From Nitrospirota bacterium (GTDB lineage Bacteria; Nitrospirota; UBA9217), in NCBI GenBank assembly GCA_963818475.1, contig CAWFSF010000006.1, forward strand, positions 2,240,001 to 2,304,000: DNA of 64,000 nucleotides. The letters are read 5' to 3'. The notes below the pieces were generated by a model. The model was given only the letters and a program-made list of their open reading frames with translations. It did not search any database and was not told the DNA's origin. Shown in pieces: positions 12,592 through 59,707 of the stretch. Position 1 is the stretch's first letter, and every line of letters starts with the position of its first letter. Made by a program: the position numbers and the translations under genes.

Positions 12592-12721
12592 AAATTCCAA
12601 ATCCGAAGCACCAAATTTCAAATAATATCCAAATAGCGAAATTCGAATGACTGAAACGTTTGAAGCTTGCACTTTCGAATTTAGAATTTATTTGGAACTT
12701 GTAATTTGTCATTTGGCGCTT
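12592..12721. repeat. 7-nt-periodic mirror-symmetric intergenic element, copy A
   Basis: Left arm AAATTCC AAATCCG AAGCACC AAATTTC AAATAATATCC...; right arm reverse complement AAGCGCC AAATGAC AAATTAC AAGTTCC AAATAAATTCT... Confidence 0.8.
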
Positions 12722-13167
12722 CAAAAGGTACTCGGGTCTTCCGGCGGCAGGCTGGCCTCGTCAAAGGGCAGAACGCCGAGCTGCATCATGACCGATTCAA
12801 CGCCCGCGAGCAGTTCCCGCGTGTCATATCCGTCGAGTTCCTGCTGCAGCGCTTTTTCGGTCAACTGGTCGAATGCCTCGAAATCGAAGGAGCCGTCAAG
12901 CACCCCAGACCGGACAAGCACAGCGTACAGGACCTTGCTGTCATACCTGCGCTCTCCAGGCCGGAATGCAAGCCGCGGCCCGGTCTCGGGCGATTCGGCA
13001 TAGGAAAGCATTGCGCCTTCCAGTGCGTCGTATAGCGTGACAATGCCTGCCGAGACCTTTCCCTGGCGCAATCTTCTTTTTCCACCCCGCAGATGCAGCC
13101 TCGCCCGCTGCAACGGACCTGCGACCGGCCCCAGCTCCTGCTCATTCATTAATCCGAAATGCGGCAT
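12721..13167 (-). CDS. Hypothetical all-helical protein, possibly HEPN-like fold
   Basis: ORF with SD GGAG: MPHFGLMNEQELGP...LQRARLHLRGGKRRLRQGKVSAGIVTLYDALEGAM. Confidence 0.7.
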   Translation of the reverse strand: MPHFGLMNEQELGPVAGPLQRARLHLRGGKRRLRQGKVSAGIVTLYDALEGAMLSYAESPETGPRLAFRPGERRYDSKVLYAVLVRSGVLDGSFDFEAFDQLTEKALQQELDGYDTRELLAGVESVMMQLGVLPFDEASLPPEDPSTF

Positions 13168-13314
13168 GGTCTGCTCTCCGAAACGGCACATGCGCTGATC
13201 AGACGCTCCTTCACCTGAGCCCCTGCCGCGCCTCACCGGACAATAGAAGACTTAAATAGTCCCATTATACCCGACAACTATCCATTTCTAGTATAGCACG
13301 GAGGAAGGGAAACG

Positions 13315-14643
13315 TCAGGAAGAGGTGGTTGTCATATCGCCGAACAACAGATAACCGCCTTTGCCGCCCTGCTTCACGCGGTACCTGGCCTGTTCCGCCC
13401 TGTTCAGCAGGGCCTCGGCGTCTTCGCCGTCACCAGGATAGAGGCTGATGCCGATGCTCGCACTGATCGAACATCGATGGCCCTTGAGGTCAAAGGGCTC
13501 CGAAAGAACAGCAACGATCTTGCGGGCCACGACCAGCGCGTCCTCGGCAGCCGTGATCCTGCAGCATATGCCGATGAACTCGTCGCCGCCCATGCGCGCG
13601 ATCGTGTCGGCCCTCCGGGTGGAAGACGCCATGCGTTTTGATGCCTCCTGCAGCAGCAGGTCGCCCACTTCATGGCCCAGCGTATCGTTGATCTTTTTGA
13701 AATGGTCCAGGTCCATATAGAGCAGCGCAAGCACAAAATGGTTCCGTTTCGCCAGCGCAAGGAGCTGGTCCATACGGTCGAAGAACAACGTGCGGTTCGT
13801 CAGTCCGGTGAGCGGGTCATAGAGCGCCAGGTGTTCGAGCCGCTGCGCCACCTGTTTTCGTTCGGCAATATCGCGGAAGATCGTCTGCACCGTCAGTTTT
13901 CCTTCCAGGGAAAAGGAGATGCTGGCAACCTCGACATCGATGACCGCTCCGTCGATCCGGATGAATTTTTCTTCGATCCAGGGTGCGCTGCCGGACTGCG
14001 CTTCCAGCTGCTGCATCCGCGAGCGCACCATGGCCCGGTAGTCGGGATGCACGATGTCGTAGATCGACCGGTTGGTCAATTGTTCCGGCCGTGCCGCACC
14101 GAGAATACGCGCGCCGGCGGGATTGACAAAGGAAAACAGGCCCCCGCAATGGATGGCGATCCCGTCCGGTGAAAGCTCGACCAGGCGGCGGTACCGTTCT
14201 TCGCTCTCCCGCAGGTTTTCCTGCATCTGGCGATGCTCTTTGACGAGCTGCTGTTTGTAGAGCACCTGGCCGATGACCGCCGGGAGCAGCTCCAGGTACC
14301 GCATCTCGGCGTCCTTCACCACGTAATCGGCTGCTCCGAGCTTAAGCGCCTCGACCGCTATGGACTCATTTCCTTCTCCCGTGACCATGATGATCGGGAC
14401 CGAGGACCCCTGCTCGGACAGGATCCGGATAACATCGAGCCCGCCGAGGAACGGCATGTTATAGTCGACAAGCAGCACATCAAACCGGCCTGCCGCGACC
14501 TTCTGCAGCCCGTCCTCGCCGTCCACCGCCGTATCGACGACAAATCCCTTCCGCCTCAGGCCCTTCTGCAGCAGGACGGAAAGGCCGGGGTCATCCTCCA
14601 TATACAGTACATGGGTCATTATGATATCGGCCACGACCTTCAC
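13315..14643 (-). CDS. REC-PAS-GGDEF diguanylate cyclase
   Basis: Receiver (LLVDYNMP), PAS, DPLTGL, intact GGDEF and an RxxD I-site (RRAD). Confidence 0.93.
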   Translation of the reverse strand: MKVVADIIMTHVLYMEDDPGLSVLLQKGLRRKGFVVDTAVDGEDGLQKVAAGRFDVLLVDYNMPFLGGLDVIRILSEQGSSVPIIMVTGEGNESIAVEALKLGAADYVVKDAEMRYLELLPAVIGQVLYKQQLVKEHRQMQENLRESEERYRRLVELSPDGIAIHCGGLFSFVNPAGARILGAARPEQLTNRSIYDIVHPDYRAMVRSRMQQLEAQSGSAPWIEEKFIRIDGAVIDVEVASISFSLEGKLTVQTIFRDIAERKQVAQRLEHLALYDPLTGLTNRTLFFDRMDQLLALAKRNHFVLALLYMDLDHFKKINDTLGHEVGDLLLQEASKRMASSTRRADTIARMGGDEFIGICCRITAAEDALVVARKIVAVLSEPFDLKGHRCSISASIGISLYPGDGEDAEALLNRAEQARYRVKQGGKGGYLLFGDMTTTSS

Positions 14644-14679
14644 ACCCTCCGGAATTACTTATGATTCTCGTTTGTAGTT

Positions 14680-14708
14680 CTCTGCGAGCTTGGCGGCTCT
14701 GCGCGAGA
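14680..14708. repeat. Short 8/9-nt-periodic intergenic repeat
   Basis: CTCTGCGAG CTTGGCGG CTCTGCGCG AGA, between the kinase and the cyclase. Confidence 0.45.
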
Positions 14709-14748
14709 CGCCTTGCTGGTGACCTGCATAGATACGAAGTTTCTTTAT

Positions 14749-17052
14749 TCAGTCCTCGCCGCCGGCTATTCGCTGGACGCGGTCATCCGCATTCTGCGGG
14801 TCATCCGGCTCAGGCGGGGCTGCAGGGACAGAAAAGCTGAAGGTCGTTCCGACGCCCATCTGCGATTCGCACCAGATGCGTCCGCCCAGCAGCCGCAACA
14901 GGGTCTTGACATAGGCCAGCCCCATGCCTTCTCCCGGCACATCCTGCGGTCCCACGCGGCGGAAGAGATCGAAAGCCTTGGGAACGTCCTCGCTCGCCAT
15001 CCCCCGTCCGTTATCGCAGATATGGAAGACGATGTTTCGCCCGTCGTGGTCGGCGCCCACCGTTATGCGCCCCGGCCTGCCGGGCGCAAGGTACTTTATG
15101 GCGTTGTCCAGGAGATTGCCGAAGATCTGCTCCAAAGCCGTGCGGTCCGTTATTATATCAGGGAGCGGCTCCACCATGACTTGGATCTGGCGGCTCTCGA
15201 TCTGGTGCGCCAGAGAGTTCAGGAGCCCCTGCACGAAAACGGTGGTCTGGAGCGGTTCGGGATTCAGCCTGCGCCTGCCAACGCGTGAGAGCTTCAGAAT
15301 GGCGGTAATAAGATTGTCCATCCGGCTCACCGATGTCCCGATGAACTGGAGCGCCTCGGGGATGTCTTTTTCGATGATGGAGAGATAGTTGCGCCGTCGC
15401 CCGTCATCGAGCTGGTCCAGAGAGGTCATGACCATCGGCGTCAGCTCTCTGATGCTGTAGATAAGCTCATCGGAAAAACCTCTGATATTGACGAGCGGCG
15501 CCCGAAGGTCGTGCGACACGATGTAGGCGAAATTCCGGAGGTCATCGTTGATCAGGGCCAGTTCCTCTGAATAGCTCTTGAGCTGCGCCTCATCCCGTTT
15601 ATTTTCGGTGATGTCCTGGGCGACGCAGACAATGCCCTGCACCAGACCTTGCGCATCACGCAGGACCGACGCCGAGAAGAGCACGGGGATCCTCCGTCCG
15701 TCGCTTCCCCGATACCATCGTTCCTGGTTGCTGATCGATCCCCGGGCGAGCACGCCCGCGATCCCGTAGTCCGTGCTTCCTGCATCTCCGCCAAGAATAA
15801 GGGTAAAAGGCTGTCCGACAAGCTCCTCCACCTGATATCCCAGCAGAAAACAGGCCGCTTCGTTCAGCCGGGTGATCGTGCCTTCCGGCGAGACCACGAT
15901 AAGGGTGTCCATCATGCTGGAGACGATGTTGTCCATATAATCCCGGGAAACCGTCGTTCGCTCGAGGTCGGCTGCCATGCGGTTGAAGCTCTGGACCAGC
16001 GTCTGTACCTCTCCCGTGGATCTCATGTCCACCTGCGCCGAAAGGTCCCCTTGCGCAAGCCGGTCCGCGGCATGGGCGAGCCGAACAATGGGCCGTGAAA
16101 AATAACGCGAGACATAATAGGCGATCACGGTCGAAACCACCAGGAGGAGCAGGAACACGATGAACACAAATCTGAGCATGGACCGGATATCATCAAGCAG
16201 GAGAGCATCGGGGATGCTGATTGCCACCCGCAGCAGCGGCGCTTCCGGCGTGATGAAAAAGTCCTGATACACCAGCATGCCGCCGTCTTCCACCAGCAAC
16301 TTCCGGTCCTGCTCCACACTCCGCTGCAGATGGGGCCGGGGATCGAAGATCGCCTGCTGGTGCTCGGGCTGCTTCAGTACGGTCCCCTCGGAAGTAAACG
16401 CCCAGATCGGATTTTCACCCAATATCCTGATAGCATCGAGGTACTCGAGGAATTCCTCCAGATTGTAGTCGAGAACAAGACCGCCAAGATAGTTCCCATT
16501 ATCAGCGTCGGTCTTGTCAATGCCGATGGAAAAAGAGACCTGCCCCTGGAGGTCTTCCCCCGGGGGAGACACGCGAATGGATCCGGGGGCATCGGTGGTA
16601 AGCTGCGCGAACACGCTGCGCCTGCCGGCACTCCCGGCCTGCTTCGCGCGTCCGGCCCGGCCGATCGTGATCACCTCTCTGCCTGTGGCATCCATAAGCG
16701 AGATGTTTTGATAGGAGGGAAAATAACGGAGCGATTCGCGAAACAACCGCTCGACAGAACGCGCAGCGATCTCACGTTCCGGGCCGGAGGACCGGAGGAA
16801 ATCGTCCAGGGTGGGATTGGCCGCAAGCATGCGCAGGTCGGTGGAAAGCTTGTCCCGGAGCTCGTCATTAAAATGATATCTGATCGTCACGAACTGCTGC
16901 AGGACACTTTCAATGGTTTGCTGCTCGATATGCCGTTTGCTGAACGTATAGTAGACAGCGGTCAGCAGTCCGCTAATGATAATGACAACGATCATGAACG
17001 CGATCAGGAGCTGGGAAAATATCGATAATCCTGTATACCGCTTTTCGCTCAT
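14749..17052 (-). CDS. Sensor histidine kinase (periplasmic Cache-like domain, HAMP, PAS, HisKA, HATPase)
   Basis: Two TM helices, HAMP, PAS, FAYIVSHDLRAPL, NLLDNAIKY, DNGRG and GMGL. Confidence 0.92.
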   Translation of the reverse strand: MSEKRYTGLSIFSQLLIAFMIVVIIISGLLTAVYYTFSKRHIEQQTIESVLQQFVTIRYHFNDELRDKLSTDLRMLAANPTLDDFLRSSGPEREIAARSVERLFRESLRYFPSYQNISLMDATGREVITIGRAGRAKQAGSAGRRSVFAQLTTDAPGSIRVSPPGEDLQGQVSFSIGIDKTDADNGNYLGGLVLDYNLEEFLEYLDAIRILGENPIWAFTSEGTVLKQPEHQQAIFDPRPHLQRSVEQDRKLLVEDGGMLVYQDFFITPEAPLLRVAISIPDALLLDDIRSMLRFVFIVFLLLLVVSTVIAYYVSRYFSRPIVRLAHAADRLAQGDLSAQVDMRSTGEVQTLVQSFNRMAADLERTTVSRDYMDNIVSSMMDTLIVVSPEGTITRLNEAACFLLGYQVEELVGQPFTLILGGDAGSTDYGIAGVLARGSISNQERWYRGSDGRRIPVLFSASVLRDAQGLVQGIVCVAQDITENKRDEAQLKSYSEELALINDDLRNFAYIVSHDLRAPLVNIRGFSDELIYSIRELTPMVMTSLDQLDDGRRRNYLSIIEKDIPEALQFIGTSVSRMDNLITAILKLSRVGRRRLNPEPLQTTVFVQGLLNSLAHQIESRQIQVMVEPLPDIITDRTALEQIFGNLLDNAIKYLAPGRPGRITVGADHDGRNIVFHICDNGRGMASEDVPKAFDLFRRVGPQDVPGEGMGLAYVKTLLRLLGGRIWCESQMGVGTTFSFSVPAAPPEPDDPQNADDRVQRIAGGED

Positions 17053-17104
17053 TGACTCTCCCGGCCCATCTGCTTCGCGAGATGTGCCCCCCGCACCTGG
17101 CCGA

Positions 17105-17548
17105 TTACTCCTTTTCCGGCACCTTGACGATGGCGAGGAACAATCCGAGCATCCGGATGGCTTCGGACAACTTATCGTACTCCACCGGTTTCGTGACATA
17201 GACATTGCACCCCAGTTCATAACACCGGGATATTTCCTGCGGATTATCCGTCGTTGTCAGCACAACGACAGGGATCTGCCTGGTGCGGGGATCGTTCTTG
17301 ATGATTTTCAGCACCTGGTATCCGTCCAGAACGGGAAGATTGAGGTCGAGCAGAATGAGGAACGGCGCAGGATGGGGATCGTTCTCGTACCCCGCCTTGT
17401 TGAACAGGTAGTCAACGGCCCGCTGACCGTTGTCAAGCGCGACAATGATGTTGGTTATCCCGGCGCGGCGAAGGTTTTTCTCGATCAGCAGTGCGTGACC
17501 GGGATCGTCTTCTACCAGCAGGATCGTTACAGGTTTGTGCAGATCCAT
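17105..17548 (-). CDS. Single-domain response regulator (Rcp1-like)
   Basis: ILLVEDDPGHA...ILLDLNLPVLDG...VLTTT...YVTKP. Confidence 0.92.
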   Translation of the reverse strand: MDLHKPVTILLVEDDPGHALLIEKNLRRAGITNIIVALDNGQRAVDYLFNKAGYENDPHPAPFLILLDLNLPVLDGYQVLKIIKNDPRTRQIPVVVLTTTDNPQEISRCYELGCNVYVTKPVEYDKLSEAIRMLGLFLAIVKVPEKE

Positions 17549-17718
17549 GGCTGCGGTCTCCTCTCAGGGGCGCCCGGTCGTTCATCCGCAAGACGCCGCG
17601 TCAGCATATCATATCCATGCCCTCTGCGAAACAGCGAGCACATCCACCCTGTTTCGCAGAGAGCACGTGCAGCAGCGCCGCAAGCCTGGCCGGCCGGAGA
17701 CGGGAAAACTCCTGCTGC

Positions 17719-19002
17719 TCAGGGGGACCAGGCAGGCGAGCTGTAATTGGCGTCGTTCGGCGTGATCCGCTCTAGGTCCGAACCGTCGGCGTTCATGATA
17801 TAGATATTCGACCTGCCGCCGCGGTTCGAGCTGAACACGATCTGCCGGCCGCTGGGCGACCATGACGGGTTCTCGTCGTTCCCCGGGCCGCTGGTCAACA
17901 GGCGCTGCTCGGAACCGTCGGGGTTGATCGTGGCGATCTTGAAGAGCCCGCCGACCTGAGCTACGAATACGATGCGGTCGCCGCGCGGCGACCAGTTCGG
18001 CGATGCGTTATAGGACCCCTCGAAGGTCACGCGCCGCACATTGGTGCCGTCGGCGCCCATGATATAGAGCTGCGGCGTTCCCGCTCTTCCGGAATTGAAA
18101 ACGATCTCCCGGTTGTTCGGCGCCCAGGAAGGCGCCACGTTGTCGGAGATGCCGAAGGTAAGCCGCTCCAGGTCGCGGCCATCGCTGTTCATGGTGTAGA
18201 TCTCGGTGCCGCCGTCCTTGCTGAGCGCCAGAGCCAGCCGCTTGCCGTCGGGCGACCATGCCGGCGAGATGTTCAGCCCTTCGGTCCCCGAGATCTTCCA
18301 CCGCTTGCCCGTTCCCAGGTCAAGACCGAAGAGATCGGGGTTCCTGTCCCGGTACGACACATACGCAAGGATCCTTCCGTCGGGACTCCATGCAGGAGAC
18401 AGGCAGATCGAGCGGTCAGCCGTGACCTTCAGGGAGTTTTTTCCGTCATAGTCCATGACGTACAGTTCCTTATTCCGGGTCTTGTCCGATACATAGGCGA
18501 TGCGGGTCCGGGCAACGCCCTTCTCACCCGTGTAGCGGGCAACGATCTCGTCGGCAAAGGAATGGGCAAGGCGGCGGACGGACTCAGCACTGCCGTTATA
18601 CTGCATGCTTGTCAGTTTTGAGCCTGAAGCGGCGTCATACAGTGTGCCGTTCAATCGGAGCGCGCTTCCGCTGCGCTGCATCGATGCCCAAACCACCCCG
18701 GTCAGCCCGAAAGTGCCACCCCGCTTCACGAGCTCACCGGTCGGCTCCTGCCGGCCGGAGTAGACCAAGTCGATCTTTTTCGGGTCCTGCACGTCAAAGA
18801 TCTGCGAGCGGCGCAAGTCGGTCTCAAGCACGGCCAGCGCCTCGTCACGAAGCAGAGGAGCGCCGGCTTCATCAACGATAGCCAAGACAGCGATCGGGAT
18901 CTTCTTTGCCTCGCCCTGGATCACACCGAGATAATATTCGGCATGGCCGGTAGCTGCTGCCATCAGTATACAGAGCGTTAAAATTTTCAGGATAGGTTTC
19001 AT
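17719..19002 (-). CDS. tolB: Tol-Pal beta-propeller protein TolB
   Basis: Signal peptide, TRIAYVS and repeated PAWSPDG (PD40) motifs. Confidence 0.95.
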   Translation of the reverse strand: MKPILKILTLCILMAAATGHAEYYLGVIQGEAKKIPIAVLAIVDEAGAPLLRDEALAVLETDLRRSQIFDVQDPKKIDLVYSGRQEPTGELVKRGGTFGLTGVVWASMQRSGSALRLNGTLYDAASGSKLTSMQYNGSAESVRRLAHSFADEIVARYTGEKGVARTRIAYVSDKTRNKELYVMDYDGKNSLKVTADRSICLSPAWSPDGRILAYVSYRDRNPDLFGLDLGTGKRWKISGTEGLNISPAWSPDGKRLALALSKDGGTEIYTMNSDGRDLERLTFGISDNVAPSWAPNNREIVFNSGRAGTPQLYIMGADGTNVRRVTFEGSYNASPNWSPRGDRIVFVAQVGGLFKIATINPDGSEQRLLTSGPGNDENPSWSPSGRQIVFSSNRGGRSNIYIMNADGSDLERITPNDANYSSPAWSP

Positions 19003-19043
19003 AATAGGAATTCAGGGTACAGGGTATTACTGACCCTCGCTGT

Positions 19044-20932: not shown

Positions 20933-20962
20933 TCACGTACCTCCAATAATGAAAAATAAACT

Positions 20963-21009: not shown

Positions 21010-21047
21010 ATTACGGTATTGCTATTCTGCATATTGAATCTTGAATA

Positions 21048-22979: not shown

Positions 22980-24257
22980 AACAGCCTCACCTCCACGTCC
23001 TCCCCGACCTCGATCCCGATCTTATTGACCGGCACCACGACCGTGCCCACGGCCTTGACCAGGGTACTGATGAGCCCCGATGCGCCGAACACGGGCCTGG
23101 CCCAGAGGCCGTCGTCCTTTTTCTCGAGCATGACCCGCACATGGTCCTCGCGCCCCGGTGAGGAGGACAATGCTCCTGGCCAGTTTCGCTTTCACGCTGC
23201 GATATGCGGAGACACCCGCAAGCGCGGGATGAGGCACTTCTCCGGTCATGCGCGCAAGGACCGGCTTTACGAACAGTTCAAAACAGATACTGACCGCGGC
23301 AGGATGTCCGGGCAGGCCGAACACCGGCACCTGCTTTGCGGGTGTATTGAGCACGCCCATGATGAGCGGCTTGCCCGGCTTGATGGAAACGCCGTGCACC
23401 AGCACGCCGGGCCTGCCCAGATCATTGATCACCTTCGCGGTCAGGTCCATTGTGCCCACGGAACTGCCGCCGGTCATCAGAACAAGATCACAATCCCCAA
23501 GGGCGGCTTCGAGCGCTTCTCGCAACCGGCCATATTCGTCCGGGATAATGCCCCTCTTGAGCGGGATGCCGCCTGTTTGTGCGATGAGCCCTTCAAGATT
23601 GTAGGAATTGATGTCGCGCACCTGGCCGGGAGCGGGTGCAGTGTCGGCGGGAACAACTTCATTGCCGGTGTTGATGATCGCCACCCTTGGTTTTTCAAAA
23701 ACACGGATACGAGTAATGCCGACGCCTGCCAGTGCGCCCATGTCCTGCGGCCGCATCCGGTGGCCGCGGCTCAGGATGATCTCGCCTTTTTTGATATCAT
23801 CGCCGGCCTGGACCACGTTCTCGAGCGGTGCAACGGGCTTCACCACTTCGATCTGCACTGCGTCTACAGACTGGGTCTGCTCAAGCATGACCACGGCATC
23901 GGCCCCTTTCGGGAGTGCGCCGCCGGTCGCGATCTTCATGGTTTCACCTGCGGACAGGGCGCGGTCTGGCATGCTGCCCATGGCGATATCGCCCACGATC
24001 GTCACCAGTGCAGGCCGCGACTCGGCTGCGCCAAAGGTGTCCGCGCTTCGCACGGCGAATCCGTCCATGGTGGAACGGTCGAACTCAGGGAGGTCTTCAG
24101 GCGACGCGATGTCTAAAGCAACGATCCTGCCGAGGGACAGGCTGATGGAGAGTTCTTCCGGTTTGGGTGAGGCAATGGTCAGATGGAGCTCAAGCGCCTT
24201 GAACGCTTCCTCCCGGGATACTACGCCGGACCGGCCGAGCATGTCTTTCATGGTCAT
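22976..24257 (-). CDS. moeA: Molybdopterin molybdenumtransferase MoeA; probable indel near 23168
   Basis: RSTMDGFAV, IATGGALPKGADAVVM, GGSSVG and GLPGHP. C-terminus continues in ORF 22976-23170. Confidence 0.92.
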
Positions 24258-24273
24258 GAATACCCCAATGATT

Positions 24274-24401
24274 AAATTCCAAATCCTAATATCGAAATCC
24301 TAAATAAATCACAAAAAGCAATCATTCAAATTCGAAACGTTCATACTTGAATTTCAGCATTTCGATATTATTTAGGATTTCGGATTTTGCGTTTCGTGCT
24401 T
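24274..24401. repeat. 7-nt-periodic mirror-symmetric intergenic element, copy B
   Basis: Left arm AAATTCC AAATCCT AATATCG AAATCCT AAATAAATCAC...; right arm reverse complement AAGCACG AAACGCA AAATCCG AAATCCT AAATAATATCG... Confidence 0.8.
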
Positions 24402-24402: not shown

Positions 24403-25335
24403 TTACTTTCCTTCCGCCTTCGCCTTGATCTTGCGCACGTATGATGCGGCCCGCATCCCGGCAACAGACCCTTCGCCCGCCGCGGCGACGATCTGCATCC
24501 CGCCGCAGGTGCAGTCGCCGGCAGCGAACACGCCGTCGAGGTTCATGCGCTGGTGCTTGTCCACGATCAGGCAACCGCGGTCGTCCGTCAGGCCGCCCGC
24601 TTTCAGGATGAGCTGCGAGATGGGGGTGGACCCCATGGCGATGAATACGCCTTCGAGTTCCAGCACGGCCTCGGTCCCATCGCGGCTGATCCTGAGCCCC
24701 GTGACCAGTTCATCTCCCACGACGGCATGGATCTTCGCCACGGGAAGGATCTCCACGTTCGGCTTGGACTTGAGCCGGGCCAGGACGGCAGTCACGATAT
24801 CAAGCTCCTTGTGCGGCACCACGGTGACCTTCTCGGCGAGGTCGGCAAGATGAAGCGCTTCCTCCGCAGCCTCGTTGTCGGATCCGACCACCGCGACCTT
24901 CCTGCCCTTGAAGAAGTTGCCGTCACAGGTGGCGCAGTAGGACACACCCTTGCCGAGGAACTCCTTGGCGCCGGGCACTTCGAGCTTTTTCCTGGCCACG
25001 CCGATCGCGATGATCACCACGTGCCCTTCATAGACCTCGTCGCGGGTGCGCACGCGCTTGATCTCGCCCGTAAGCTCCATGTCCACGACTTCCACCGGAT
25101 AGATGATCGTCGCGCCGAATTTCTCGGCCTGTTTTGCCATGATCTGGGTGAGGTCCATGCCGTTGATCGTCTCATACCCGGGGTAGTTCTCAATATGCGA
25201 GATCTTGGCGGTATAACCGCCGACAAAATCCTTTTCGAGCACTACGCATTTCTGGCCGGCCCTGCCGAGATACAGTGCGGCAGTAAGGCCCGCGGGACCG
25301 GAACCGATGATGATCGCGTCATACATTTGTGCCAT
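24403..25335 (-). CDS. trxB: Thioredoxin-disulfide reductase family FAD oxidoreductase
   Basis: IIGSGPAGLTAA, IENYPG, GVSYCATCDG and GVFAAGD. Confidence 0.85.
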   Translation of the reverse strand: MAQMYDAIIIGSGPAGLTAALYLGRAGQKCVVLEKDFVGGYTAKISHIENYPGYETINGMDLTQIMAKQAEKFGATIIYPVEVVDMELTGEIKRVRTRDEVYEGHVVIIAIGVARKKLEVPGAKEFLGKGVSYCATCDGNFFKGRKVAVVGSDNEAAEEALHLADLAEKVTVVPHKELDIVTAVLARLKSKPNVEILPVAKIHAVVGDELVTGLRISRDGTEAVLELEGVFIAMGSTPISQLILKAGGLTDDRGCLIVDKHQRMNLDGVFAAGDCTCGGMQIVAAAGEGSVAGMRAASYVRKIKAKAEGK

Positions 25336-25538
25336 GAACAATTCCTCCTTCGTAAAACGAATGATTCATTCTATCCAAGAGCCTGAAACAAGTCAACCCC
25401 GGAATCAGCTCATGCCGTTGTTTCGCCATGCAAAAGGGCTGGGCGGACCGGTCTTCGGACCACAGGCACTTCCGTGCTTGCGCACTGCATCGTACTTCGT
25501 GTACTATATTGAAAAAAGAACGATCATTGGGAGGGATC

Positions 25539-29576: not shown

Positions 29577-29593
29577 GATGTCCTCCCATTGCG

Positions 29594-29687
29594 TGATACA
29601 CGATGCATGCTACACGATGCATGATACAGGAAGTAAGAAATCGCTGATAGTTTTCATCATGCATCCGGCATCATGCATCCTGTATCA
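29594..29687. repeat. 7-nt-periodic inverted element with GATRCAY units
   Basis: GATACAC GATGCAT GCTACAC GATGCAT GATACAG ... CATCATG CATCCGG CATCATG CATCCTG TATCA; terminal inverted repeat TGATACA/TGTATCA. Confidence 0.75.
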
Positions 29688-30065
29688 TTCCTCTCTCCTC
29701 ACCACGATACTTCTCACCTGCACACGTGCTTTTTTCCGGTTTTCTTCCTGGCGCCGCATCTCGAACAATTCCTCCTGGAGCTGCCTGATCGTCTCCTCCA
29801 TGCTCCGCTGCATCTGCTCCATCTTCTCGCGCATCGAGAGGATCACCTCGACGCCCGCAAGGTTGACGCCGAGGTCGCGCGTGAGCCGCAGCACCATTTC
29901 GAGCTTCTCGATGTCGTCTTCGGAATACAGCCGCGTATTCCCAACGCTCCGCGACGGTTTGATAAAACCTTCGCGTTCATAGATCCTGAGCGTCTGAGGA
30001 TGGATCCCCAGCATTTCCGACACCACACTGATCATATACAGCCGATGTTTTCGCTCAGCCATCAC
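29685..30065 (-). CDS. hspR: MerR-family heat-shock repressor HspR
   Basis: YMISVVSEMLGIHPQTLRIYEREG...RLYSEDDI...LGVNLAGV; located between dnaJ and clpB. Confidence 0.92.
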   Translation of the reverse strand: MMAERKHRLYMISVVSEMLGIHPQTLRIYEREGFIKPSRSVGNTRLYSEDDIEKLEMVLRLTRDLGVNLAGVEVILSMREKMEQMQRSMEETIRQLQEELFEMRRQEENRKKARVQVRSIVVRREE

Positions 30066-30113
30066 ACACCCCGTGGTTCAGTGCGAATTGAACATACCCT
30101 AAAACACACTTCA

Positions 30114-30157
30114 CATTTACTCCGCACTCCGAACACCGAACACCTAACTCCAAACTC
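30114..30157. repeat. Tandem heptamer tract (ACWCCNN units)
   Basis: ACTCCGC ACTCCGA ACACCGA ACACCTA ACTCCAA ACTC, abutting the dnaJ stop codon. Confidence 0.7.
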
Positions 30158-31289
30158 AACTTCTCTTCCTGAAACCCTTGAATGACGTATCCTGACGCGG
30201 GTTGGAAGGATGCAGCTTGTCAAGCTCTCTAAGCAGCTCTTTTCCGCGGTCGCTCAACCCGGCAGGCGTAACCACCTTGATGGTTGCATACTGGTCGCCC
30301 ACACCTCCGCCGCCCAGATGGGGAACGCCTTTTCCCGTGAGCTTCAGCTGCTGCCCCGATTGAACGCCCGGCGGCAGCGTGAGCGTGACCATGCCGTCCA
30401 CGGTCGGGATCTCCACTTTGTCGCCCAATGCCGCTTCCTTTACCGTGACGCGCACATCGGCATAGAGATCGTCGCCTTTTCGCTCAAAATGATGGTGAGG
30501 CCGCACCTTGGTGATGATATAGAGGTCGCCGGAAGGCCCTCCCTTGGCGCCGGCCTCTCCCATGCCCGATACGCGGATCTTGGACCCGTTGTCAACGCCG
30601 GGAGGGATCTTGACATTGATGCGCTCGATCTTCGGCACGATGCCGCTGCCGTTGCAGGACCTGCAGGGATTCGGATTGATCGTGCCTTCTCCGCGGCAGG
30701 TGGGACAGGGCTGGGCGATCTGCATGAATCCTTTTCCCTGGGAAATGCGGCCCGAGCCCATGCAGGTGGGACAGGTCCGCCGCGAACTGCCCGGAGCTGC
30801 GCCCGACCCTGAACAGGCGCCGCACGTTGCATCCCGCCGCAGTTCTACCTGCATGGTCCTTCCATAAATGGCATCTTCAAGGTCCACTTCAACCGAGTAG
30901 GTCAGGTCCTCGCCTTTCTGAGGACCGCGTTGCCGTTCTGCGCCGCCGAAAAGATTTCCAAAGAGGTCCTCGAAATTGCCCCCCCTGAAGAAGTCTCCGC
31001 CCTGGGCCGCGCCCCCAAAGCCTCCTCCCGGCCGCTGCTGAGCATCAAAGCCCTGTTCAAAAGCTGCATGGCCGAACTGGTCGTATTGTTGCCGCTTCTT
31101 CGGGTCTGACAGGACTTCGTAGGCCTCGCTTATTTCCTTGAACTTAGACTCGGAAGCCTTGTCCCCGGGGTTCACATCAGGATGATATTTCCGGGCATAC
31201 TTTCTGAATGCCTTCTTAATTTCAGCTTCGGAAGCCGTTTTTTTCAGACCCAAAAGTTCGTAATAATCACTATTTGTACCAGTTGCCAT
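30156..31289 (-). CDS. dnaJ: Chaperone DnaJ
   Basis: J domain with HPD, G/F-rich region and four CxxCxGxG repeats. Confidence 0.95.
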
Positions 31290-49205: not shown

Positions 49206-49282
49206 TAACCACGGAGTCACGGAGAAGTTACACTTCAGCGGTTTATTTTTAAATCCGCAATCCGAAATCCGCATTCCGCAAT
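49206..49282. repeat. Composite periodic spacer (8-nt CACGGAG x2 plus heptamer tract)
   Basis: AACCACGGAGTCACGGAG, then AAATCCG CAATCCG AAATCCG CATTCCG CAAT abutting the upstream stop codon. Confidence 0.7.
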
Positions 49283-50937
49283 CAACATACGTAGCTGATC
49301 GAAAGCCGATCCGCGATGTCCTTGTCCGCCACACCCAGTGCGTCGGACATGCCGATGGGAAGCTCGGTGCTCCGCCCCAGCGGCGCAAAGATCTTCTTGA
49401 GCTCCACGTCGGCCGCCTTGAACACCTCGACGACCCGTTCAGCCACTTTGTCGGGGTCAAGCCTGCGGTACAGCTTGGGATCCTGCGTCGTAATGCCCCG
49501 CGGGCACTTGCCGAGGTTGCAGACATTGCAGCGGTTGTACTCGTCGCCGAAGCAGCCCGCAGCGGTCTGCATGATGTACTTGCCGATGTCCACGGCCGAA
49601 GCGCCGAGCATGATGAGCGCTGCCGCGTTCGCCGCGAGGTTGCCGCCCTTGCCCACGCCGCCCGCGGCGATCAAGGGAAGCTCGTTCTGTTTGCCCTGCT
49701 TCACGAGGTCGAGGTAGCAATCGCGGATGTTCGATGCGATGGGATGGCCCATCTTGTCCATGGACACGTTATATGCCGCCCCGGTGCCGCCATCCTCGCC
49801 GTCGATGCAAAGCGCCGCGGCATAAGGGTTTCGGGCAAGGTTGTTCAGCACGGCACGGGCCGTCTTGGTGCCCGAGATCTTGGGATAGACCGGCACGCGG
49901 AAACCCCAGGCCATGGACATGGACTGGATCATCTTCGCAACAGCCTCTTCAATGGAATATTTCGTCTGGTGCGTGGGCGGCGAGGCCAGATCGATGAACT
50001 GCGGCACGCCGCGGATCTTCGAGATAAGGCCGAGCACCTTGTAGGCCTGGAGCAGGCCGCCGTCGCCCGGTTTCGCGCCCTGTCCGTACTTGATCTCGAT
50101 GGCGCAGGGGTCTTCGATCATGTCAGGAAGACAACGGATGATCTCGTCCCAACCGAAATATCCTGACGCGATCTGGATAATGAAATATTTCAAGTAGCGC
50201 GACTTGAGGATGCTCGGCGGCAGACCGCCCTCTCCCGAGCACATGACCACGGGAAGGCCTTCGACCTCGTTCAGATAGGTGATGCCCATGGCGAGGCCTT
50301 CCCACATATGCGGAGAGAGCGCGCCGATGGACATGCTGCCGATCCTGATGGGGTAGATCTCGCGCACCGGAGGGACAAAGGATCCCTCGATCATGCCGAG
50401 CTTGTTGCCCTGGACCCTGATGGGAAGCTGCTCCGCCGGAAGGTTCCGGCCCAGAAGCGTCCTGATGCGGAATTCATGGCGTCCTGCGTCGAGCGCCGGG
50501 TCGGTGAGCATCGAGATACGCGTGAACTTGAGCTTGTCGAGCGTCGATACCGACGGATCGTTCCTGCGGCCGCCGCGCATATAGGGGATGCCGCCCTTGT
50601 TCTTGAAGTGGTAGAACTTGTGCTGAAAATTGTACTCAGGAAAGATCGCTTCTGTGGGGCAGACCAGCGCGCAGGTGCCGCAGCCGATACAGTAGCGTTC
50701 GATCTCCATGGACTGCTTCACCACGTGGGTCAGCCTGCGGGTCACCTTCGGCTCGGGACTGGAGCCCTCGGACGTGACGGTCCGCTGGGTGTTGACCGCG
50801 GGTTCGATGGCCTTCACCGGGCAGACGGCGGTGCAGCGTCCGCAGCGCGTGCAGCGGTCCTCGCGCCATTTGATGATATAGGGAAACTCTTTGATCGAGA
50901 GTTGATGGTTCTGGTCTAACCGTGCAGCTGATTCCAT
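49282..50937 (-). CDS. Glutamate synthase FMN-binding subunit with N-terminal ferredoxin domain
   Basis: Two CxxCxxCxxxCP motifs, MSIGALS, SGEGG, IQIASGYFG, EIKYGQGAKPG and CPRGITTQ. Confidence 0.92.
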   Translation of the reverse strand: MESAARLDQNHQLSIKEFPYIIKWREDRCTRCGRCTAVCPVKAIEPAVNTQRTVTSEGSSPEPKVTRRLTHVVKQSMEIERYCIGCGTCALVCPTEAIFPEYNFQHKFYHFKNKGGIPYMRGGRRNDPSVSTLDKLKFTRISMLTDPALDAGRHEFRIRTLLGRNLPAEQLPIRVQGNKLGMIEGSFVPPVREIYPIRIGSMSIGALSPHMWEGLAMGITYLNEVEGLPVVMCSGEGGLPPSILKSRYLKYFIIQIASGYFGWDEIIRCLPDMIEDPCAIEIKYGQGAKPGDGGLLQAYKVLGLISKIRGVPQFIDLASPPTHQTKYSIEEAVAKMIQSMSMAWGFRVPVYPKISGTKTARAVLNNLARNPYAAALCIDGEDGGTGAAYNVSMDKMGHPIASNIRDCYLDLVKQGKQNELPLIAAGGVGKGGNLAANAAALIMLGASAVDIGKYIMQTAAGCFGDEYNRCNVCNLGKCPRGITTQDPKLYRRLDPDKVAERVVEVFKAADVELKKIFAPLGRSTELPIGMSDALGVADKDIADRLSISYVC

Positions 50938-53536: not shown

Positions 53537-54460
53537 TTAGTCGAACCCGAGCGCTATGCCGAGCCCGGCATACGACAGCCTGTTGACATAGAATTGTCCA
53601 TGCGGCGAGTACCCTTTGTAAGCCTCTAAGAGCACGCGGATAAATCTGCCGTTGGGTATAGAGCTGTCGAACTGAAGCCCCGCCTTGAGTGATCCATTCA
53701 CTGCCCAGTCATGTTCCTGATCGATCTTGAGATCGAGCCCGCCGACGAGCCGACCGCGGCCCAGGACCGGGTCGGTCCCGTAATACTCGACCCCTCCCTG
53801 CGCTGCCCACGGGCGCAGTTCATGCGGAACCTTGTGGAGGAAGTACTCGCCGCCGCCATAGACACGCCACTCCCGCCATTCCCGGGACCAGATAACATTC
53901 AGGGCCTCATAGGAAAATTCGATACGGTCCGTTTTGGACTGGAGCAGGTACTCATCGCCCAGATGAGAGCTCTGATGATAAAGCGCGATCCGCACCGAAA
54001 CAGGGCCCTTACGGTAGCTCATGGGAAAACCGATGGTATAGTCGGCATTGACCAGGGCACGGGACGGCATATCGAGGTTGAACTGCGCATGGATGCCACC
54101 GCCGAAGTTCATCTGCCATGCAGACCCCTCAGCCCGGTCGATATGCCGGTAAATACCGAAGATCTCGCCGAATCCGCCGGTCGCGGCGTTAATGGACTGC
54201 GATTGATACACATAGTGGCGATAACTGAGGTAGAAGTGAGGTTCTTTGGGGTCTGCCAGAAGAGGCCGGAAGAGGTCGCCTAAAGGAAGGAATATTGTCT
54301 CAGCAGGGGAAACGGAGGAGCCAGCCGGGGCAATTATTTCACTGCCCGTTCCAGGAGTATGCGAAGCGAATTCAGTGGCATGAGAGGCCGGCGTCAGTGC
54401 GATCAGGATGAAAAAGACGAGCGCGACTGAACCAGCACAATTCCGGAAGAACAGGTTCAT
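53537..54460 (-). CDS. DUF1207-like exported protein, probable beta-barrel
   Basis: Own ATG and signal peptide (MNLFFRN...ASHA); FRPLLADPKE, LVNADY, YHQSSHLGDE and GYSPHGQF. Confidence 0.75.
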   Translation of the reverse strand: MNLFFRNCAGSVALVFFILIALTPASHATEFASHTPGTGSEIIAPAGSSVSPAETIFLPLGDLFRPLLADPKEPHFYLSYRHYVYQSQSINAATGGFGEIFGIYRHIDRAEGSAWQMNFGGGIHAQFNLDMPSRALVNADYTIGFPMSYRKGPVSVRIALYHQSSHLGDEYLLQSKTDRIEFSYEALNVIWSREWREWRVYGGGEYFLHKVPHELRPWAAQGGVEYYGTDPVLGRGRLVGGLDLKIDQEHDWAVNGSLKAGLQFDSSIPNGRFIRVLLEAYKGYSPHGQFYVNRLSYAGLGIALGFD

Positions 54461-54510
54461 AAGATGAAGTATAGCGGATTGGCTGGCAGTTTGTCGCCGG
54501 TGTCCAAAAG

Positions 54511-55970
54511 CTAAGCAAGCCAAACCGGCGATCGAGGCCTTGGCGAAATCGAGCAGCTGAGCCGGCAATACGCCGATGTAGATGACGAAGGACGCTGAAA
54601 TTGCCAGCGCCAGCGCCAGCGACGGGGCCCGGGAGATCTCGAATGACCCGACGGGGTCCTTCATATACATGACCATGATAACGCGCAGATAGAAATAGGC
54701 GCTGATCGATGAAAGCAGGACGCCGACAACGGCAAGCCAGACAAGGCCCGCTTGTACGGCTGACTGGAAGATATAGAACTTGCCGACAAAACCGGCTGTC
54801 GGCGGTATGCCCGTGAGCGAGAACATGAAGATCAGCATGAGGAAGGCTGCGGTCTTGTTGGTCTTGCCCAGGCCGGCAAAGTCCGCGATGTCCTCGCCCC
54901 GCTCCCCCGCCTTGCGCAGCATGATCACCACGCCGAAGGCCCCCATGTTCATGAGCGCGTAAATGCAGACGTAGAGCATGACGCTCGCGGCACCGTCGGG
55001 ACCGCCGGCAGCCAGGCCGACGAGTGCATAACCCGCATGGGCAATGGAGGAATAGGCGAGCATGCGTTTGATGTTCGTCTGCGACAAGGCCATGATGTTG
55101 CCCGACAGCCATGGTCAGCACGGCCAGACCCGCCAGGATCGCGGTCGATTGTTCATGGAGCGGCTGGAGCGCATACAGGAAGACCCTGAGCAGCACGGCA
55201 AAACCGGCGACCTTGGGACCGGCGGACATGAACGCCGTGACCGACGTCGGCGCCCCTTCGTATACGTCCGGCACCCACATATGGAATGGCGCTGCAGCCA
55301 CCTTGAATCCGAAGCTCACGACCAGCATGATCATGGACAGCATCAGGACCGGGTTCGTCAGGTCAGCCTTCTGGAGGAACAGCAGGATGCCGGCCAGGTT
55401 CGTGGTGCCCGTGATTCCGTACATCAGCGACATGCCGTACAGCATGATCCCCGACGAGAAGGCGCCCAGGAGCAGATACTTGATAGCCGCTTCATTGGAA
55501 CGGTTGCTGCCCCGCATGAAGCCGGCGAGGACATAGATCGAAAGGGCCATGAGCTCGAGTCCGAGGTACAGCGTGATAAGGTCCCCGGCCGAGGCCATGA
55601 GCATCATGCCGCACGTGGAAAAGAGCATCAGTGCGTAATACTCGCCGCGGTGGATATCCTCTTCTTTAAGGTAATTGATCGAGACGAGGATGCCCAGGCC
55701 GCAGGCGCTGTAAAAAACGAACTTGAAATACGTCGAGAACGGATCGATGAGGAACGTTCCCGAGAACACAGAGCCGGAGGCGCCGATCGCTCCATAGCTC
55801 GCCACGGCGGCAAATGACACGCAGCCGAGACTGAACCATCCGAGGTATCCTTTATATTTCTTGTCCGTGAAAAAATCGAGGATCAACACCAGCAGGCCGC
55901 CGGCAATGATAATGATCTCCGGTGCAAGGGACGTCATGGATTGTGCTATTTCCTGGATCGAGCTGGACAT
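54511..55970 (-). CDS. nuoN: NADH-quinone oxidoreductase subunit N; probable indels near 55103 and 54520
   Basis: EAAIKYLLLGA and GFKVAAAPFHMWVPDVYEGAP, then after the shift KRMLAYSSIAHAGY and GIPPTAGFVGK. Confidence 0.92.
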
Positions 55971-56015
55971 CGATATCTCCTCACAGATTCCACTGGAATA
56001 AAACTCCTGACAAAA

Positions 56016-57556
56016 CTACTTCGCGAGCAGGGAACCCACCGCTTGGGCCATGGCAGGAACGTGCTGGACTTTGGCGTTCACCTGCTGAATAAGATTGGAT
56101 GCGGACATATGGATCATCTGGAGCGCCGCATTCGGATAGAGGCCGATGAAGAAGACCAGTATCACCAGCGGCAACGATGCGGCGATCTCCCGCAGGTTCA
56201 TATCAACAAGATGTTCGTTATGCGGGATTCGTGATCTTGCCGAAGGCCACACGCTGATAGAGCCAGAGCATGTATCCCGCGCCGAGAATGATCCCGAGCG
56301 AGGCGATCACGGCATAGGGCTTATAGTGCATGAACGCGCCGAGCAGGATGGCAAACTCGCCGATGAAGCCGTTCGTGCCCGGCAAGCCGATGGACGAAAA
56401 GGTGATGATCATCAGGAACGTGGCATAGATCGGGACCCTGGCTGCGATGCCGCCGTAGTCGGCGATCACCCGCGTATGGGTCCGTTCGTATATCACACCC
56501 ACGGCAAGGAACAACGCTCCCGTCGAGATGCCGTGGTTCAGCATCTGCAGGATCCCGCCCTCAAGCCCCTGGCTGTTCAGGGCAAAGATGCCGAGGGTGA
56601 CAAAACCCATATGGCTGACGCTCGAGTAGGCAATCAGTTTCTTGAAGTCCGTCTGCGCAAAGGCCATGTAGGCCCCGTAGATGATCGCGATCACCGAAAG
56701 GATCATGATGGCCGGGGTCCAGGCTGAGCGCGGCGTCAGGGAAGAACGGCAGCGAGAACCGGAGGAAGCCGTAGGCGCCCATCTTGATCAGGATGCCGGC
56801 CAGGATGATGCTGCCTGCAGTGGGCGCTTCCACGTGTGCGTCGGGCAGCCAGGTGTGGACCGGGAACATCGGCACCTTGACCGCAAAGGCCGCGAAAAAG
56901 GCAATGAAAGCAAATATCTGGAACGTATAGGTGAACTGGTGGTTCATGATGGCCAGCACATCGAAGGTCTTACCCGCGGCAACGTAAATGGCCATGATGG
57001 CGACGAGCATGAGCACGCTGCCCACGAGAGTGTAGAGAAAGAACTTGATGGCAGCGTAAAGCCGGTTCGGTCCTCCCCAGATGCCGATCAGCAGGTACAT
57101 GGGGATGAGCATGGCTTCCCAGAAGATATAGAACAGGAAAAGGTCAAGCGAGGTAAAGACGCCGATCATAGCCGCTTCAAGGAACAGGATGGCAATCATG
57201 AACTCCCGCACCCGGTCCTGAATGGCGGTCCAGGACACCATGATCGAGATGACCGTCAGGAGGGCTGTCAGCGCCACAAAGAGGATGCTGATGCCGTCAA
57301 CGCCGAGCTTGTAGCTGATGCCCCAGGCGGCGATCCAGGGCAGGTTCTCGCCGAACTGCATGTTCGCGGTCGTCGTGTCAAAATTCGTGAGCAGCGGCAG
57401 ACAGAGCGCAAGATCGATGACCGCGACGCTTACGGCGATCCAGCGTACTGCCGCGGCGTTCCTGACGAACAGCAGGATGAACGAACCGATCACGGGAATG
57501 AAGATCAGGAGGCTCAACAGCGGGTATCCGAGCTGGTTCGGGATCAATTCAAGCAT
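56016..57556 (-). CDS. nuoM: NADH-quinone oxidoreductase subunit M; probable indels near 56720 and 56222
   Basis: FYIFWEAMLIPMY, KVPMFPVHTWLPDAHVEAP, KKLIAYSSVSHMG and GLPGTNGFIGEF. Confidence 0.93.
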
Positions 57557-57636
57557 GGATCTGACTCCTTTGGCAAATGGATACTGATGTCAACGCAAAC
57601 CACGAGGCATCTGTTTCAATGATAAGCTGCGCCCTG

Positions 57637-59569
57637 CTAACGCAGAACGTAGTACAATCCCACGAGGACCACCAGGCCAAGCGCCATGGTAAATGCATAC
57701 TGCTGCACATAGCCGGTCTGGATCTTCCGGCTTTGCTGGCTCGTCGAACTGATCGCCTGCGCAAGGCCGTTCACTGCACCGTCGATGATTTTGACATCGC
57801 CGATCGTATAGAGAATCTTCGCCAGTTTGTGAACCAGGCCGTCAACAAAAATGTAGTTGTAGATTTCGTCAACCTTATATTTATTAAGGAGCAGCGTGTA
57901 AGCACCCTTGTACTTCTCCGCCCAGTAGGCGGGCCGGGAAGGGTTCTTTACATACCATGCATAGGCGCTTCTGATCCCGGCAAGCGCGACCACGACGGAA
58001 AACACCATCAGGCCAAGCTCGAACCAGTGGCTTTCTGCCGCAGCTGCATGCTCAGCATGCGGAAAGAGCGGTGCGAGAAAATCGCCAAACAGGTTCATGT
58101 GAGGAATGATCGCCCCGGGCATCCCGATCCAGCCGATGACCACGGAGAAAAACGCAAGGATCATGAGCGGGACGGTCATGACCTTCGGCGACTCGTGCAC
58201 ATGGTGCTCGACCTCGTGGTCCATGCGGGATTTTCCGTAGAAGGTCAGGTAGATCAGCCGGAATGAATAGAATGCCGTCATGAAGGCGGCGGCCACGCCG
58301 AGGACCCACAGCCCGCGGCCCAGCGTCGATGCATTGTAAGCGCTCCAGAGGATCTCGTCCTTGCTGAAAAAGCCCGCAAAGGGAAAGATCCCGGCCAGGG
58401 CAAGAGAGCCGATGATGAACACCGCATGGGTGATCTTGATCTTGGACTTGAGCGCGCCCATCTTGCGCATATCCTGCTCGCCCGACAGTGCATGGATCAC
58501 GCTGCCCGAGGCAAGGAACAGGAGCCCCTTGAAGAACGCATGGGTCGTGAGGTGAAAGATGCCTGCCGAGAACGCCCCGACCCCGAGCCCCAGGAACATA
58601 TAGCCGAGCTGACTGATCGTTGAATAGGCGATGACGCGCTTGATGTCATTCTGCACCAGGCCGATGGTCGCGGCAAAGACCGCGGTCAGCCCGCCGACGA
58701 TGGCAACGACATTCATCGCGGTCGGAGAGAGCGAGAAGATCGGCGCACAGCGCGCCACCATGAAGACGCCGGCGGTGACCATGGTCGCCGCATGGATCAG
58801 GGCGCTGACCGGCGTGGGGCCTTCCATGGCGTCCGGGAGCCAGACGTAGAGCGGAAGCTGGGCGGACTTGCCCATGGCTCCCACGAACAATAGCAGCGCG
58901 ATCAGGGTAATCACACTGATCTCTGACCCGAAGAGCAGGTAGTTGAAATTGGCGGCCGGATCGGCAACGGCCTTGAAGACCTCGGCGAAAGTTCAGTGTG
59001 CCGAAGGTGACAAAGATCAGGAGCATGCCGAGCAGGAAGCCGAAGTCGCCTACGCGGTTCACGACAAAGGCCTTGATGCCGGCATCGGAGGCTGATTTTT
59101 TCTCATACCAGAAGCCGATCAGGAGGTAGGAGCAGAGGCCGACCCCTTCCCAGCCCACGAACATGAGCAGGAAGCTGTTGGCCATGACCAGCACCAGCAT
59201 GAAGAAGGTAAAGAGCGCCAAATAGGAGAAGAACCGGGCAAAACCTTTGTCGCCGTGCATATATCCCACGGAGTAGATGTGAATAAGGGAACTGAGCGTG
59301 GTCACGACCAGGAGCATGACCGTGGTCAACTGGTCGATCTGCAGCCCCACATTCACCGAGAGCGTACCGATGGAGATCCAGGAATAGAGGTTCTCATTGA
59401 TGATCGTCCCGCCGAGCACATCGAAGAAGGCGCTCACGGAAAGCACGAACGCCCCGACCACGCCGAGAATGGGGAAGTAGGCGGCCCTCTCCTTCAGGAA
59501 TTTCCCGAACAGACCGGCGATCAGGAAGCCGGCGAAGGGCAGCAGCGGTATCAGTGCATATTTAAGCAT
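57637..59569 (-). CDS. nuoL: NADH-quinone oxidoreductase subunit L; probable indel near 58990
   Basis: GWEGVGLCSYLLIGFW, NRVGDFG and GKSAQLPLYVWLPDAMEGPTPVSALIHAATMV. Confidence 0.94.
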
Positions 59570-59586
59570 AATCACCTCTTCGAGGT

Positions 59587-59707
59587 AAATTCCAAACTTC
59601 AATTTCCAAATCTCAAATAAAATCCAAATTTCAAATTCGAATCATAGAACATTTGCCTCTTGGTACTTGGAATTTATTTGTAATTTGGCGCTTGGGCTTT
59701 GGGATTT
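59587..59707. repeat. 7-nt-periodic mirror-symmetric intergenic element, copy C
   Basis: Left arm AAATTCC AAACTTC AATTTCC AAATCTC AAATAAAATCC...; right arm reverse complement AAATCCC AAAGCCC AAGCGCC AAATTAC AAATAAATTCC... Confidence 0.8.

Follow-up and report, generated by a model that had tools for sequence, protein, structure and literature searches.

The stretch of DNA analysed here (the window) covers 64,000 nucleotides of a Nitrospirota bacterium (GenBank assembly GCA_963818475.1, contig CAWFSF010000006.1, positions 2,240,001 to 2,304,000 of the forward strand). The assembly of this source genome, referred to below as G000, has 4.66 Mb in 7 contigs and is 91% complete. Three gene junctions in the window hold an AT-rich spacer (68-70% AT) in which two arms of phased heptamers face each other in mirror order. 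These spacers are gene-less members of a hairpin family whose full form carries the gene of one clade of four-helix-bundle proteins. They had been picked out earlier from the letters of the window (the original prediction), and all three were found where and as described, with four heptamers, an 11-mer, 7-8-nt units and a mirrored second arm (Table 1). Pfam searches agreed with the proposed neighbours (DUF255/yyaL-like, thioredoxin-reductase-like, MoeA, NuoK and NuoL), while the gene upstream of copy 1 matched no family. Each element starts within 10 nt of the upstream stop codon, also as proposed: the stop overlaps the first base of copy 1 by 1 nt (12721) and lies 1 nt from copy 2 (24403) and 7 nt from copy 3 (59715).

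Table 1. Coordinates of the three elements, their parts and the adjoining host genes in the window.
Feature	Position	Strand	Remark
Copy 1, complete gene-less hairpin element, 130 nt	12592..12721	.	host operon on minus strand
Copy 1, left-arm 11-nt phase break	12620..12630	+	read from sequence
Copy 1, right-arm 11-nt phase break	12683..12693	-	read from sequence
Copy 1, palindromic centre AAAC/GTTT	12654..12661	.	arms meet here; place of the gene body in filled cassettes
Copy 2, complete gene-less element, 128 nt	24274..24401	.	breaks 24302-24312 and 24363-24373; centre 24335-24342
Copy 3, gene-less element with shortened centre, 121 nt	59587..59707	.	breaks 59615-59625 and 59669-59679
Upstream host gene of copy 1, no Pfam family	12721..13236	-	present in 14/16 same-family genomes
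Downstream host gene of copy 1, DUF255/yyaL-like	11181..12587	-	Pfam
Upstream host gene of copy 2, thioredoxin-reductase-like	24403..25341	-	Pfam
Downstream host gene of copy 2, moeA	23022..24257	-	Pfam
Upstream host gene of copy 3, nuoK	59715..60017	-	Pfam
Downstream host gene of copy 3, 5' part of nuoL	58646..59569	-	Pfam

From the outside inwards, each arm has four AAnnnnn units and then a 4-nt step, which together with the unit after it makes up the 11-mer; another three to four units follow, and an A-tract closes the arm on its inner side. The second arm repeats this in mirror order. Lag-7 identity was 0.53, 0.48 and 0.56 in copies 1, 2 and 3, compared with 0.30-0.32 after half-wise shuffling that preserved the composition of each half; 0, 1 and 0 of 20,000 shuffles per copy scored as high. 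Compared pairwise, the six arms agree at only 34-48 of 60-65 bases, so that phase and not sequence is conserved, as originally stated. Whichever strand is folded, all three copies form a long hairpin with interruptions (z -3.2 to -4.8). The claim of one architecture throughout held for the arms and breaks but not for the centre of copy 3, where 65 nt separate the phase breaks; the spacing is 72-75 nt in 18 of 31 G000 copies (43 copies were considered, of which 12 were excluded because they did not fit the break pattern). Similarly, AAATTCC at the end facing the downstream gene proved a tendency and not a rule, the outer heptamer being shared by 8/23 downstream-facing and 4/23 upstream-facing arms.

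Because both arms carry the 11-nt break, only one register should pair all A-tracts with all T-tracts. In this register pairing involves the A-tracts and the final base of every unit, whereas the middle bases pair no better, and locally worse, than those of arms taken from different copies. In 117 metagenome copies a pairing deficit was seen in the second unit outside the break (z -2.4 to -3.3) and at one inner position (-5.4). The outer avoided site had AT in one arm and GC in the other in 28 of 87 non-redundant copies, versus 17.5 expected (1 of 5,000 shuffles). Such avoidance of pairing is only suggestive, as it may be the product of a few founder lineages. The original prediction had also asked about covariation between arms. 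Positive covariation was detected at the last unit base and in the phase break (z 3.8), but it is not counted as proof of pairing because shared subfamily words may cause it. A two-arm polarity model performed better than re-paired arms, and this polarity was unrelated to transcription in the empty copies (11/23, 10/23).

The family was then sought genome-wide. Requiring five phased AA followed by five phased TT within 200 nt returned 52 arm pairs in G000 at period 7 and none at periods 5, 6, 8, 9, 10 or 11. A 4-nt step after three phased units occurred 79 times, against 1-20 times for steps of 3 and 5-10. A profile made from the six window arms gave 46 left-right pairs no more than 1,500 nt apart; there were 0 such pairs once the genome had been shuffled locally, and 1 pair had the reverse order. 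Forty-two of these were distinct and shorter than 170 nt, one of them a member of a different heptamer family, and several further copies missed by pairing appear among the unpaired arms; the family in G000 therefore has about 45 members. The periodicity above shuffles, the existence of further copies and the absence of an Rfam match (in the window at gathering thresholds, and in 10 loci at E 0.5) leave standing the view that this is a real repeat family.

At 40 G000 loci outside the window neighbours were named by Pfam; they were co-directional at 28/28 loci with both neighbours named, and the other 12 loci had one named neighbour. Earlier calls based on open reading frames (36 co-directional, 6 convergent, n=42) were replaced, since nuoK and other genes had been miscalled. 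Occupied junctions include atpA-atpG, nifH-nifD, rplU-rpmA, dnaN-gyrB, murB-ddl, lspA-lgt and kdpA-kdpB. In 24 of 31 copies the outer unit begins somewhere from 1 nt within the upstream stop to 10 nt past it.

Two further ideas of the original prediction concerned origin: that the elements are the empty ends of a small cassette, and that similar arms flank four-helix-bundle (TIGR02436) genes in other anaerobes. Both were borne out. Among genomes of the same family, a break-bearing arm was present at just 3 of 73 PF05635 loci (L098, L127 and L129), all from one clade, whose protein matches TIGR02436. A scan with the L127 protein, from which 80 relatives were kept (Bacteroidota, Patescibacteria, Planctomycetota, Desulfobacterota-type and other records), found these arms on both sides at 56/80 loci and on at least one side at 69/80, across many phyla. 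For other PF05635 clades the values were 0/70 and 1/70. On a quick tree of 91 protein rows (one third of the usable scan hits; L098 labelled from its 5' arm alone) the arm label required 2 changes, versus about 23 for shuffles. These results show that the element and the arms of this cassette are the same thing.

The geometry of filled and empty forms corresponds closely. The gene starts inside the 5' arm, whose inner part encodes the N-terminal tail of the protein, and the 3' arm begins at the stop of the gene. A start codon lies 12/13 nt past the break in 20/41 filled 5' arms and in 1/41 3' arms. Measured from the nearest break, the distance to a conserved Asp codon is 42-46 nt in 27/48 cassettes and that to the stop is 34-42 nt in 22/47. 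The A-tract positions of filled and empty arms coincide, and because both inner distances match half an empty copy, an empty copy amounts to two arms joined at their inner A-tracts. A vestigial start codon is retained in 4/26 G000 copies. Filled cassettes are co-directional with their neighbours in 40/41 cases (both neighbours called, by frame length). Among the 66 of 108 flanking frames that were scanned, most were housekeeping genes and none was a transposase, integrase or reverse transcriptase; PD-(D/E)XK nuclease, RuvX, SRAP and TraG gave single matches, none recurrent. The cognate protein is predicted to be a four-helix bundle (predicted local distance difference test, pLDDT, 87 for the best of five models and 43-51 for the others), with 2RLD (Z 16.4) and 2GSC (Z 15.6) as nearest structures.

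In G000 itself no member of the cognate clade was found (best match 33-39% identity). Its five PF05635 genes over the cut-off each have heptamer arms of other words. In genome G013 the sister protein clade (L374/L125) has arms of another sequence in which an 11-nt phase break is kept, hinting that arms and proteins may diverge together. At another G000 locus (L004, G000:C6:1704900-1706250) a four-helix-bundle gene follows a complete hairpin and is itself followed by a direct copy of the right arm, a ribosome-binding site and a start codon, as if the gene had been inserted by recombination at the right arm; another hairpin of its family lies one gene downstream.

Orthologous junctions were compared among relatives, and filled, empty, bare and other-family alleles were all seen. 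At pheS-pheT (24 loci) two are filled, three are nearly bare (gaps of 4-21 nt) and many carry other heptamer families; one empty copy retains the start codon and first codons, and in nested forms a part-arm of this family is joined to the hairpin of another (L248 in G000; L238, L240 and L247). At rplU-rpmA, G000 and G004 have the element where G003 and G005 have a bare 26-nt spacer, with flanks 92-96% alike. At trxB-moeA the family is present but sequence-diverged in G000, G002, G016 and others, with its architecture kept across genera, while G003 and G004 hold another heptamer family and two genomes have 6 nt or a gene overlap. In contigs of relatives aligned over this spacer, one 160-nt replacement and no clean skip of the element was observed; contigs from two public runs lose their match at 24273-24274. 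At nuoK-nuoL the same element with substitutions occurs in G003, a 19-nt spacer in G005 and related or unrelated hairpins in other genera. In all five congeners the copy 1 junction is occupied by short arrays belonging to a third family, and at the murB, pdxJ and dnaN junctions the last codons or the stop vary with the occupant. Copies turn over quickly between species, and the junctions behave as slots with a replaceable occupant.

Copy number, surveyed with the strict pattern, was 21 in G000, 22 (G013), 23 and 11 (G016) in three other genera, and 0 in 27/41 genomes. The cognate gene was found in just one of the 41 relatives, G018 (assembly 86% complete). Seven of 20 copies fetched from this genome form a close group, mostly 75-91% alike (six compared), against a median of 69% for the 20. 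Their flanks are unrelated, and their sites include lysA-dapF, rplS-rnhB, one that follows ffh and one that precedes an AcrB gene. With regard to transcription, all six that have a named neighbour point the same way, and 15/15 pairs align better sense-to-sense. In G000 no pair among the 29 full-length copies exceeded 80% identity; because the cognate gene was not found there, the G000 copies give the impression of a population that is older and orphaned. The uniform orientation of the young G018 group and the nearness of copies to stop codons suggest either a step linked to transcription or selection acting after insertion.

The reading we favour, and hold to be probable, is that the empty elements are non-autonomous copies of the arm/gene/mirror-arm cassette, which the protein would recognise as a periodic strand in folded form and a host enzyme would set down behind stop codons, after which they diverge. 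The cognate protein would probably form a ring-shaped pentamer as in its family, a pentameric ring being cited for a Xanthomonas protein (PMC4990558). Its target would be the phased A-tracts of a single strand in folded form, held in one pairing register by the 11-nt break. An enzyme of the host, not encoded by the cassette, would then put the hairpin where a transcribed gene ends; a few bases would be replaced and no target duplication would arise. Empties would be copied as units while the cognate gene is present, and could later persist, diverge, decay or swap between lineages by homologous recombination. We infer recognition by the protein, copying of the empties and a placing enzyme. The original terms "protein-recognised" and "mobile" gain support from the clade-specific arms and the young subfamily, and what emerges is a repeat tied to a large protein family of unexplained function that appears to be spreading.

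Several points weigh against this reading. Neither movement nor binding was observed, and the protein has no known catalytic motif, nor did the scanned flanking frames include a mobility enzyme. The 80 filled loci were chosen by likeness to one protein and, being kin, are not independent. The link between the gene and a young burst comes from one genome, G018, where the arm with a start-codon remnant faces antisense. Copy numbers are high where no cognate gene was found (G000, G016) or where the gene is of the sister clade only (G013). In G000 similar pairs share no common orientation (6 vs 5) and the vestigial start is not significant (4 vs 0 of 26, p 0.11). At rplU-rpmA the last codon and the spacer behind the ribosome-binding site differ as well, which points to allele replacement and hides the true insertion point. 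No target-site duplication was seen by eye at rplU-rpmA, at nuoK-nuoL or on the flanks of 20 G018 copies, the bare sites compared being those of relatives and not of near-identical strains.

Two candidate drivers encoded elsewhere in the genome were set aside. The tyrosine transposases associated with repetitive extragenic palindromes (RAYTs) showed no closeness to the arms: 0 of 11 Y1 genes of G000 lie within 7 kb of an arm, and none was found in the 86% complete G018. Reverse transcriptase gave seven matches in G000, all more than 30 kb from an arm, and in G018 just a fragment with a stop, though such an enzyme might act in trans. Five near-identical reverse transcriptase genes of G000 (G000:C6:242078, 267610, 269737, 272571 and 881607, three of them within 5 kb) share a group II intron-like 3' end followed by different downstream DNA.

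Alternatively, whatever their origin, the hairpins could be kept by the host as intercistronic RNA elements, that is, as sites for RNase III or another nuclease or as stabilisers of the upstream message, in the manner of rRNA intervening sequences and REP sequences. The purely co-directional placement in operons such as atpA-atpG, nifH-nifD and kdpA-kdpB and the architecture retained at trxB-moeA despite sequence divergence would fit, as would the Coxiella 23S intervening sequence, a stem with heptamers before its gene that is cut by RNase III (PMC4990558). Wobble pairs (G-U/U-G) outnumber mirror mismatches (A-C/C-A) in filled cassettes (107 vs 73) and in 23 oriented metagenome copies (73 vs 55), but not in G000 (85 vs 107), where the sense strand folds better in just 17/26. 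Given this mixed result, a strand-specific RNA signal was not accepted, and the substrate may be RNA or DNA. Moreover, the stems are broken every few pairs, the longest perfect run averaging 8.4, and close relatives have no element, or an unrelated hairpin, at the same junction. We consider host retention unlikely as the explanation; it is compatible with the cassette-copy reading.

A little less likely still is that every empty is the separate ruin of a filled insertion, the copies being alike through gene conversion of arms and never having spread alone. The empty pheS-pheT copy with a vestigial start, at a junction filled in two other genomes, is what such decay would leave; broken PF05635 genes are common, and the G000 copies are all well diverged. 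Independent deletions, however, should leave scattered lengths and not the dominant 72-75 nt between breaks, and none of the 46 arm pairs, searched to 1,500 nt, contained a gene-fragment intermediate. The G018 subfamily shares its centre and lies antisense to the filled polarity, unlike a decayed expressed cassette. Finally, slippage-made simple repeats or AT-rich terminator-like DNA of only apparent order are very improbable: unit numbers do vary at some junctions and heptamers are known as intergenic simple repeats (PMC4679880), but the units of an arm are not alike, neither the 11-nt break nor the mirror layout changes from phylum to phylum, 46 pairs run left-then-right against 1 in the opposite order, and copies 1 and 2 hold no terminator-like site. 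The constant architecture and the link with a single protein clade already refute this reading.

The family was also compared with known systems, and the element is built like 23S rRNA intervening sequences that bear an open reading frame and works like a REPIN/RAYT system (REPIN, a hairpin doublet built from REP, or repetitive extragenic palindromic, sequences) without meeting either definition. As in the 23S intervening sequences (S23p/PF05635; PMC4990558), a four-helix-bundle gene sits in the loop of a terminal inverted-repeat stem, with heptamers before the start. Neither the three copies nor the other members of this family in G000 contain the gene, which the filled form carries elsewhere. 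Unlike those sequences, copies and filled forms lie between protein genes and the window has no Rfam match; the family is mostly gene-less and multicopy, and it has degenerate heptamer arms with a phase break in place of a near-perfect 28-bp stem. With REPINs (PMC3116915) it shares many non-autonomous, extragenic inverted hairpin doublets, a rare cognate gene flanked by the same repeats, and separate repeat groups for separate gene groups. It differs in that the cognate gene encodes an all-helical bundle and not a Y1/HUH tyrosine transposase, that the arms are AT-rich phased heptamers and not short GC-rich conserved palindromes (PMC3116915), and that placement is confined to co-directional junctions with the gene inside the hairpin. 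The young G018 subfamily bears on replication of the doublet as a unit, no intermediate having been observed.

The original exclusion of a terminator, a classic REP, a recent MITE (a miniature transposable element with inverted repeats) and a CRISPR array holds. An insertion-sequence-derived MITE is disfavoured by the missing target-site duplications; no transposase partner was found among the 66/108 flanking frames, to which this search was confined. An intrinsic terminator would need a short GC-rich stem and a U run, and the terminator scan, which covered copies 1 and 2, found no such site inside them. There is a possible resemblance to integron attC sites, hairpins with required mismatches that are marked by an integrase and by R/L boxes with extrahelical bases; no integrase was found among the same frames.

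Two published repeat sets probably belong to the same class without a gene link, namely those of Geobacter (PMC2700814) and Beggiatoaceae (PMC4679880, PMC4853749). The paired "global regulator binding sites" of Geobacter metallireducens (PMC2700814), also an anaerobe, are multicopy, intergenic, opposite-strand pairs of 7-9-nt repeats, but of other words and interpreted there as IHF/HU sites; the passages available and Table S4 contain no link to a four-helix bundle. Heptamer repeats of Beggiatoaceae, cyanobacteria and Bacteroidetes (PMC4679880) lie just upstream of starts, including those of ribosomal-protein operons, and their patchy distribution suggests transfer. Unlike ours they are described as direct repeats of one word, almost never inverted, and the available text has 0 occurrences of a four-helix-bundle link. 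The cognate protein has the same general fold as Avd of diversity-generating retroelements (Z 11-12 to 8UB7 and 4DWL, values within the range of unrelated helical bundles), and Avd, a barrel overlain by structured RNA, is a precedent for nucleic-acid binding by this fold (bioRxiv 10.1101/2023.10.23.563531). Unlike in those retroelements, no reverse transcriptase, template or variable repeat lies beside the cassette. The heptamer arms may also resemble the STRR repeats of cyanobacteria. No published description of this hairpin family was found in a literature coverage that mostly excludes subscription journals.

PF05635/TIGR02436 proteins are widespread without an assigned function, and reports of heptamer repeats between genes go back years without accounting for where these come from. 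To both, this analysis adds a defined arm-clade pair, the arms-joined geometry, a register break with avoided pairs, an allelic series and a young subfamily. As one protein clade goes with one hairpin of fixed geometry, binding, cleavage and mobility are directly testable, with other clades as negative controls. If empties do spread without a transposase of their own and land behind the stops of essential operons, such targeting would have no described counterpart among REPINs or MITEs. More tentatively, and with considerable doubt, PF05635 four-helix-bundle proteins might serve a large and so far undescribed class of mobile DNA as recognition parts that are free of enzyme activity. Each clade would have its own periodic hairpin code and a recruited host enzyme, and its gene-less hairpins would compete for gene ends in operons; the register lock by the 11-nt break and the avoided pairing positions would fit a structure-specific substrate.

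Other heptamer families are also present in G000, where 215 lag-7 clusters were counted versus 1-75 at other lags from 4 to 13. A second family forms single arrays at 60062-60122, the junction just upstream of nuoK, and at 49237-49296; because the same words form the arms of the four-helix-bundle gene L005, this family still has its cognate gene in G000. A third-family hairpin (29589-29706) and a fourth-family single array (30100-30168) flank one small gene. Two weak promoter-like matches in copy 1 were given no weight. The nuoL gene is seemingly split over two frames (57637-59569), its 318-aa frame matching just the start of PF00361, and one base is missing in contigs of relatives at 23168 (three runs) and 25349 (two runs); the split and both single-base differences are probably assembly errors.

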